In this document: in pieces, positions 12,331 through 12,996 of the stretch
Layout: every line of letters begins with the position of its first letter
Position numbering within the stretch: position 1 is the first letter of the stretch
Source of the DNA: Eledone cirrhosa
Taxonomy: Eukaryota
Reading direction: 5' to 3'
Assembly: GCA_964016885.1 (NCBI GenBank)
Contig: OZ024750.1
Coordinates: 25,296,001 to 25,360,000, forward strand
DNA length: 64,000 nucleotides
Notes under the pieces: model-generated
Told to the model about the DNA's origin: nothing
What the model saw: the letters and a program-made list of their open reading frames with translations, nothing else
Database searches by the model: none
Position numbers and translations under genes: made by a program

Positions 12331-12996
12331 TTATTTCTCAAGATCTGACAAATGAATTTTCCCAGAAGGTTCCAGTTTTGTTACTGTTGGAGACAAGTAA
12401 CCACTGTAACGATTTCGAAATCTACTCGTAAATACTCTCCCTGATCGTTTCCTTTCATCAACAGCAGGAGCTGCCACCATTTGCTCAGCTTCTCTTTTGG
12501 AGACCAAGTTGTCCAATCGTTTTTCTAGTTGGAATGCTTTATATCTTTTTAAGAATTCCGACAGTAAGGGGTCTTCATATTCTGCCAACATTGTTGATGG
12601 TCTAGGTTCATGAGCTTTCTTCATTAACATATATCGATATCGATTGGCGAACGAACCATCTGGTGAAACAGTCAAGCCATTGTTTCGGTTAAATGCAACA
12701 TTACCACTTCGTATATAGAGTTTCAAAAGCTCCATCACTTCTCCTTGACAAAGATCATCGTCTTTCAGACATTTTTCACAAAGCATCAATGCTTCAGGTT
12801 GGAAGCAACACTTTGATACAAGTGGTTGTAAAGTGTTTGGCAGCTTAATACATGATTTACATATCATTTCTTTCATTGAATTAGCTGAACAACCTTGGTT
12901 GCCTTCTGACTCCCCCACGAACACAAGTTGTATTGTAAAGCTCAGAATGAGGATGTTAACTAATGTACCTCCAACAACACTATATTTAGCAGCCAT
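12331..12996 (-). CDS. Secreted cysteine-rich neuropeptide/prohormone-like precursor (221 aa)
   Basis: The only long non-repetitive, non-TE ORF. It has a hydrophobic N-terminus (about aa 6-27) and 8 Cys spaced C-x9-C-x2-C-x13-CC-x8-C-x2-C-x6-C. Downstream are KK, KR, KR, KR and RKR convertase-type sites. The ATG directly follows the acceptor TTCTTTTCTTCTCTGTTTTTTCAG. Confidence 0.85.
   Translation of the reverse strand: MAAKYSVVGGTLVNILILSFTIQLVFVGESEGNQGCSANSMKEMICKSCIKLPNTLQPLVSKCCFQPEALMLCEKCLKDDDLCQGEVMELLKLYIRSGNVAFNRNNGLTVSPDGSFANRYRYMLMKKAHEPRPSTMLAEYEDPLLSEFLKRYKAFQLEKRLDNLVSKREAEQMVAAPAVDERKRSGRVFTSRFRNRYSGYLSPTVTKLEPSGKIHLSDLEK

Follow-up and report, generated by a model that had tools for sequence, protein, structure and literature searches.

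The definition of a protostome opioid-like family of neuropeptide precursors is usually credited to work by Jekely in 2013. Proenkephalin appears among the bilaterian families in the main text of De Oliveira et al. 2019 (PMC6425005), scallop members of the family come from nerve-ganglion data with their peptides listed as "opioid" (PMC5996578), and Platynereis proenkephalin has been assigned to one neuronal cell type (PMC12387772). Invertebrate opioid systems have been called controversial (PMC6085516), and a 2026 study found no opioid precursors in an Octopus vulgaris transcriptome (PMC12919962). We analyzed a stretch of 64,000 nucleotides from the octopod Eledone cirrhosa (assembly GCA_964016885.1, contig OZ024750.1, positions 25,296,001 to 25,360,000, hereafter the window). 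An open reading frame (ORF) of 221 amino acids runs uninterrupted from ATG to stop at 12331-12996 on the minus strand, in AT-rich, repeat-rich surroundings. It is a real gene and likely represents, in octopods, the proenkephalin-related family of lophotrochozoans; its O. bimaculoides relative has been catalogued before.

No ATG-initiated ORF of this length arose in 500 shuffles of positions 11001-14000 (mean of the longest ORF 65 amino acids, maximum 165), so the frame is not a product of chance. A protein search returned two matches among 326 candidates, one from O. vulgaris and O. sinensis (83% identity) and one from Argonauta hians (72%). A cluster look-up added O. bimaculoides XP_014772863.1 (83% identical to the window protein), an extended O. 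vulgaris model and an unnamed protein from Logan. The named relatives are all labelled "uncharacterized" or "hypothetical" in sequence databases: XP_014772863.1 (also Ocbimv22011834, LOC106871087), CAI9718021.1 of O. vulgaris, XP_029657718.1 of O. sinensis and GAB1604926.1 of A. hians. Overall, the octopod relatives are 72-84% identical to the window protein, which is not itself among the entries of the protein collection searched. A search with the Cys region gave two matches, both octopod, and a shorter-protein search gave none among 126 candidates. A library of 1.84 billion proteins yielded the Argonauta protein and one 2400-amino-acid repeat protein over residues 77-117 (E 2.9e-5), which was discarded as spurious. 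Within the window the gene is present in one copy, and a relaxed form of its Cys pattern occurs a single time across all six frames.

The sequence-only reading of this DNA had proposed a neuropeptide-like precursor with a signal-like leader and a compact 8-Cys domain. That it is neuropeptide-like is supported by how the precursor is organised, by where its residues are conserved and by the place of the O. bimaculoides relative in a published survey. The N-terminus is hydrophobic (15-residue Kyte-Doolittle mean of 2.05 from residue 11) and forms a putative leader. Cysteines at residues 36, 46, 49, 63, 64, 73, 76 and 83 follow the pattern C-x9-CxxC-x13-CC-x8-CxxC-x6-C exactly as first described. 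This spacing (9-2-13-0-8-2-6) occurred in none of 200,000 shuffles of the window protein and is identical in the five octopod sequences compared. Basic sites lie at KK126, KR150, KR159, KR167 and RKR182. Sites 159 (KR or RR), 167 and 182 are present in 5/5 octopod sequences, and the Eledone protein alone has KR150-151. Of the three short peptides that had been proposed, LDNLVS stays a predicted product, with both flanking sites (159 and 167) conserved throughout, but YKAFQLE is not a conserved product because KR150-151 is private to the window sequence. The C-terminal stretch starting with SGRVFTSRF runs on for 37 residues. Gly212-Lys213 is conserved in all five sequences and could give rise to an amidated 27-mer, which is cationic (5 K/R against 1 D/E). 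None of the five sequences contains YGGF, a dibasic-[YFW]G peptide or an N-terminal Tyr.

Conservation was counted on five sequences, the 271-amino-acid O. vulgaris model being excluded as a duplicate with an extension. Invariant residues are most frequent in the predicted peptides 185-212 and 169-184 and least frequent in the spacer (Table 1), with 48 of 66 in the Cys domain and 5 of 9 in the tail. The ORF is also spanned by a contig of run X5, which comes from another organism; this contig differs from the window at no fewer than 26 places (119 further table rows follow those listed). The 26 places listed affect 23 codons, all within codons 116-220. Among these differences, all eight in codons 167-212 are synonymous, against four of 12 in codons 116-146 (eight non-synonymous), and those in codons 166, 219 and 220 are non-synonymous. 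Codons 167-212 are thus strongly constrained. Together, the conservation pattern and the synonymous bias suggest that selection is concentrated on the last two dibasic-flanked peptides, as would be expected for a neuropeptide precursor.

De Oliveira et al. 2019 print the O. bimaculoides relative, Ocbimv22011834, in file 3 of their supplement (PMC6425005). Its block comes after vertebrate proenkephalin, prodynorphin and pronociceptin, and contains named Platynereis proenkephalin entries together with bivalve, gastropod, chiton, scaphopod, solenogaster, squid, brachiopod and nemertean sequences. The supplement of Thiel et al. 2021 (PMC8557429) holds the same octopus sequence, and its brachiopod members are headed "Proenkephalin related". 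The precursor, first presented as uncharacterised and of unverified family, can hence be placed with the lophotrochozoan proenkephalin-related ("opioid-like") precursors. We compared it by eye with the block as printed, counting the 15 other mollusc species whose printed sequence includes the domain (isoforms once per species; one partial Haliotis entry without the domain excluded). The exact spacing of the octopod proteins (5/5) recurred in 13 of these 15 species. The two exceptions differ by one residue in one gap: the first gap of Gadila is 8 residues long and the third of Idiosepius 12. In the nemertean entry, also with 8 Cys, the third gap counts 11 residues; Platynereis and Lingula have 6 Cys.

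Repeats of the type KR-[YFW]G, from one to many, are present in 11 of the 15 molluscs. As printed, no canonical repeat was seen in the remaining four (Solemya, the solenogasters Neomenia and Gymnomenia, and the squid Idiosepius), whose entries are perhaps truncated or isoforms; these entries weigh against octopod uniqueness. Aligned by eye, SGRVFTSRF, which follows RKR, is identical at 5 of 9 positions to WGRLFTSKW, the final repeat in the scaphopod Antalis, which follows KR; three more positions are conservative. The acidic peptide matches an Idiosepius stretch of the same length, located between two KR sites, at 6 of 14 positions without gaps. Since the dibasic-flanked [YFW]G peptide is lacking, the octopod proteins represent a variant and not a canonical member of the family.

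Other peptide families were also considered. A CCRFamide precursor, as the family name implies, carries a C-terminal CCRF followed by an amidation Gly. The loose resemblance to this family that the sequence-only reading had seen did not hold, as the window protein has no CCRF motif: its CC (residues 63-64) is followed by FQ and lies about 130 residues from RF (192-193), and RF is followed by Arg in place of the amidation Gly, as had been noticed at the time. The CCRFamide family (named in PMC3890597) was consequently rejected. Comparing Cys patterns by eye with the supplement of PMC8398477 led to the rejection of eclosion hormone, clionin, CLCCY, CCWamide, CCCGS, FYFY, GSWN, GRWRN, prohormone-3 and prohormone-4.

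We consider it probable (about 0.78) that the gene encodes a secreted proenkephalin-related neuropeptide precursor, likely the octopod ortholog, from which cleavage at KR and RKR would release a peptide starting with Ser-Gly-Arg-Val-Phe and an acidic 13-mer, acting on a receptor other than a classical opioid one. The leader would be cleaved near residue 31 and residues 32-100 would form a disulfide-bonded four-helix pro-domain. PC1/3 or PC2 would cut at 159, 167 and 182, carboxypeptidase E (CPE) would trim the products, and Ser211 might be amidated by way of Gly212-Lys213. Neurons would then release the acidic 13-mer together with the peptide that begins with Ser, the latter perhaps in the form of an amidated 27-mer, and both would act on a G-protein-coupled receptor. 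O. vulgaris has PCSK convertases and CPE (PMC12919962). Neuronal use of the octopod precursor is presumed by analogy with the scallop ganglia and the Platynereis neuron type.

Several points weigh against this assignment. The "proenkephalin" label of the De Oliveira block was taken from its named entries and from the family list of the main text, no header naming the block being seen in file 3 (PMC6425005). The link to the family consists of the published grouping, obtained by sequence clustering, and of our comparison by eye, and the neuropeptide role of the window gene is a prediction from its sequence. The dibasic-flanked [YFW]G peptide that marks the family is found in 0/5 octopod sequences, and our protein searches reached no member outside octopods. 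Pfam returned no family for the whole protein, the Cys domain or the C-terminal peptide, and there was no match among PDB sequences. ESM Atlas gave one low match to the protein, neuropeptide S, whose score of 0.78 falls short of the level taken as a lead; residues 30-100 had no match there. Lastly, the 271-amino-acid O. vulgaris model (P0005, CAI9718020.1) has 50 extra N-terminal residues before the Met used here; this extension, if real, would make the hydrophobic stretch internal. It has no tblastn match in the window.

Of the alternatives, the one that survives best, although we regard it as unlikely, is that the principal hormone secreted is the helical 8-Cys domain, distantly related to hormones of the CHH/ITP/eclosion-hormone type, with the C-terminal peptides in a secondary role. 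All 15 mollusc species printed retain the domain, and the KR-[YFW]G repeat was not seen, as printed, in four of them. The structure prediction advised by the sequence-only reading produced a model: by AlphaFold2 in single-sequence mode, residues 32-100 form a four-helix bundle (mean predicted local distance difference test score, pLDDT, 74.9; three of five models above 73), the full-length model being unusable (mean pLDDT 43.4). Foldseek with the domain model found no match at E<=0.001 and VIA-align no chain of 48,161 at Z>=5. Two centipede helical peptides, which we take to be of CHH ancestry, were among the weak matches (2m35, Z 4.1, root-mean-square deviation 2.9, 48 residues aligned; 2mz4, Z 3.4, 3.1, 46 aligned), but designed helical bundles ranked equal to or above them. 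The absence of matches is no sign of a new or different fold. CHH homologs of lophotrochozoans have been described as peptides of four helices, but CHH/ITP peptides have 6 Cys in ecdysozoans and usually 4 in lophotrochozoans (PMC13311285) against the 8 found here; the sequence-only reading had already noticed that the Cys spacing does not fit CHH/ITP. Among octopods, moreover, the Cys domain is less conserved than the C-terminal peptide (48/66 against 27/28), and the first dibasic site beyond it is residue 126.

It is about equally doubtful that coleoids rebuilt an ancestral precursor, losing the Tyr-Gly repeats and using a Ser-starting amidated 27-mer and a coleoid-specific acidic peptide as ligands, with the four-helix 8-Cys domain, retained in all molluscs and related to the CHH/ITP fold, as a hormone in its own right. 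If this were true, the family would be misnamed, and octopods would be without an enkephalin-like peptide from the proenkephalin-related family.

Recruitment from a neuropeptide family into an exocrine gland, as a salivary or venom peptide or the like, or into defence, as a cationic peptide, seems improbable. The 27-mer is cationic, and neuropeptides are commonly recruited into venoms, including octopus tachykinin-like peptides (PMC13311285). However, the window holds a single copy, the peptide is near-invariant from Octopus to Argonauta, and the changes in codons 167-212 are synonymous only, among those listed; a ligand under receptor constraint therefore fits better than a fast-evolving toxin. 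No positive evidence for a venom or gland peptide was found.

We give the least credence of all to a true opioid precursor, homologous to vertebrate proenkephalin and serving as an endogenous octopus analgesic: lophotrochozoan proenkephalin is listed among bilaterian families (PMC3890597; PMC6425005) and oyster opioid-like peptides are said to be considered protostome counterparts of enkephalins (PMC4200219), but the octopod sequences have neither YGGF, described as essential for opioid-receptor binding (PMC13311285), nor an N-terminal Tyr, vertebrate precursors as printed have 6 Cys in another spacing (C-x3-CxxC-x15-C-x3-C-x12-C in the first vertebrate entry examined), neither opioid peptides nor their receptors have an apparent homologue in invertebrates according to a review (PMC5818035), and a candidate-gene search of an O. 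vulgaris transcriptome found neither classical opioid receptors nor precursors (PMC12919962). Classical opioid action of the octopod peptides is thus unlikely.

The features of the gene are given in Table 1.

Table 1. Position of the precursor gene and its predicted products in the window; invariant residues are counted over five octopod sequences.
Feature	Position	Strand	Basis or remark
ORF, 221-amino-acid precursor, stop included	12331..12996	-	relatives 72-84% identical
Predicted signal peptide, ~residues 1-31	12904..12996	-	hydropathy; 20/31 residues invariant
8-Cys domain C36-C83, spacing 9-2-13-0-8-2-6	12748..12891	-	predicted four-helix bundle, residues 32-100
Variable spacer, residues 98-158, including non-conserved KR150 and YKAFQLE	12523..12705	-	24/62 invariant (98-159)
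Short peptide LDNLVS (161-166), between conserved dibasic sites	12499..12516	-	8/9 invariant (160-168); release predicted
Acidic peptide 169-181, between KR and RKR	12454..12492	-	15/16 invariant (169-184)
Basic C-terminal peptide 185-221	12334..12444	-	27/28 invariant (185-212)
Single degenerate family-type motif SGRVFTSRF, start of C-terminal peptide	12418-12444	-	in 5/5
Polypyrimidine tract and CAG, directly 5' of ATG	12997..13020	-	sequence context; likely splice acceptor

The polypyrimidine tract and CAG abut the ATG, so an intron and an upstream exon likely precede it, as judged from this context. The junction of the P0005 extension coincides with this acceptor-like site, at 12996/12997. 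Contigs of run X4 cover 11550-11932 and 11960-12975, with none over 12976-13086 or 11422-11532, both covered by runs X1 and X2. Such coverage would be mRNA-like in shape; it comes from a single run of unlabelled kind and is not counted as evidence. On the gene strand (minus), five AATAAA hexamers are found between 11556 and 11971, at 11556, 11609, 11618, 11727 and 11966; such hexamers are expected by chance in AT-rich DNA. Very high-copy short interspersed repeats are located at about 11909-11989, 13424-13534 and 14030-14420 (summed contig depth from hundreds of thousands to millions), and one of them is found some 350 bases past the stop codon, possibly in the 3' untranslated region.

A minisatellite at 9215-11187, about 1.1 kb beyond the stop codon, consists of 38.9 copies of a 51-bp unit with 94% matches and gives rise to long open frames, all spurious, on either strand. 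Others were detected between 1 and 36000, the part scanned, at 2569-3076 (54 bp), 25370-26032 (20/40 bp), 28479-29368 (40 bp, 99% homogeneous) and 32512-33544 (48 bp). A degenerate retroelement resembling a long interspersed nuclear element occupies 14600-17312 (plus strand) in several frames. Its 14600-15463 part weakly matches the endonuclease-reverse transcriptase family PF14529, at an E of 1.2e-4 that does not reach the curated cut-off, and the frame at 16548-17312 opens with a weak match to a PHD finger.

An endogenous opioid-like system in cephalopods would bear on pain and welfare. The octopod counterpart of the protostome "proenkephalin" family is present in O. vulgaris, yet without the opioid-making motif. 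A counterpart lacking this motif fits both the view of invertebrate opioid systems as controversial and the O. vulgaris study that found no opioid precursors. Because a published supplement already lists the gene, what is added here is an annotation and a variant that can be tested, rather than a new system. It offers concrete peptides for peptidomics and receptor tests, with a modest bearing on cephalopod opioid-like signalling. We found no description of the octopod remodelling of the precursor in the literature searched, which left most subscription papers, including the Sepia neuropeptidome, outside. The main texts searched likewise contain neither the octopod accession numbers nor the start of the peptide, and Ocbimv22011834 does not occur in the papers listed for it.

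Compared with known systems, the window protein shares with its octopod relatives the length of 221 amino acids, the Cys spacing, sites 159/167/182 and the near-invariant C-terminal peptides. The CHH/ITP superfamily resembles the predicted octopod domain in being small, helical and disulfide-rich and gave weak fold matches (Z 3.4-4.1), but it has 6 or 4 Cys against 8 here, no Pfam match links the two, and the fold scores are in the range of unrelated bundles. Vertebrate proenkephalin, prodynorphin and pronociceptin have the same general layout of a signal peptide (predicted in the octopod form), a Cys-rich N-terminal domain and dibasic-flanked peptides. In full-length entries they have 6 Cys without a CC doublet and carry YGGF or FGGF, whereas the octopod form has 8 Cys with CC and neither motif. 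These vertebrate precursors are grouped with the lophotrochozoan family in PMC6425005, a homology that is disputed (PMC5818035). Within that family, annelid and brachiopod entries have 6 Cys, in contrast to the octopod 8. Molluscan opioid-like precursors (Lottia, Crassostrea, Pinctada, Patinopecten, scaphopods and chiton) have the same order of hydrophobic leader, Cys domain, spacer and C-terminal peptides with dibasic flanks. What sets the octopod form apart from them is its lack of [YFW]G repeats and its one Ser-starting copy with a long extension, and the sole look-alike of its acidic peptide in the block is that of the squid Idiosepius; it nevertheless keeps the G-R-x-F core of one family repeat.
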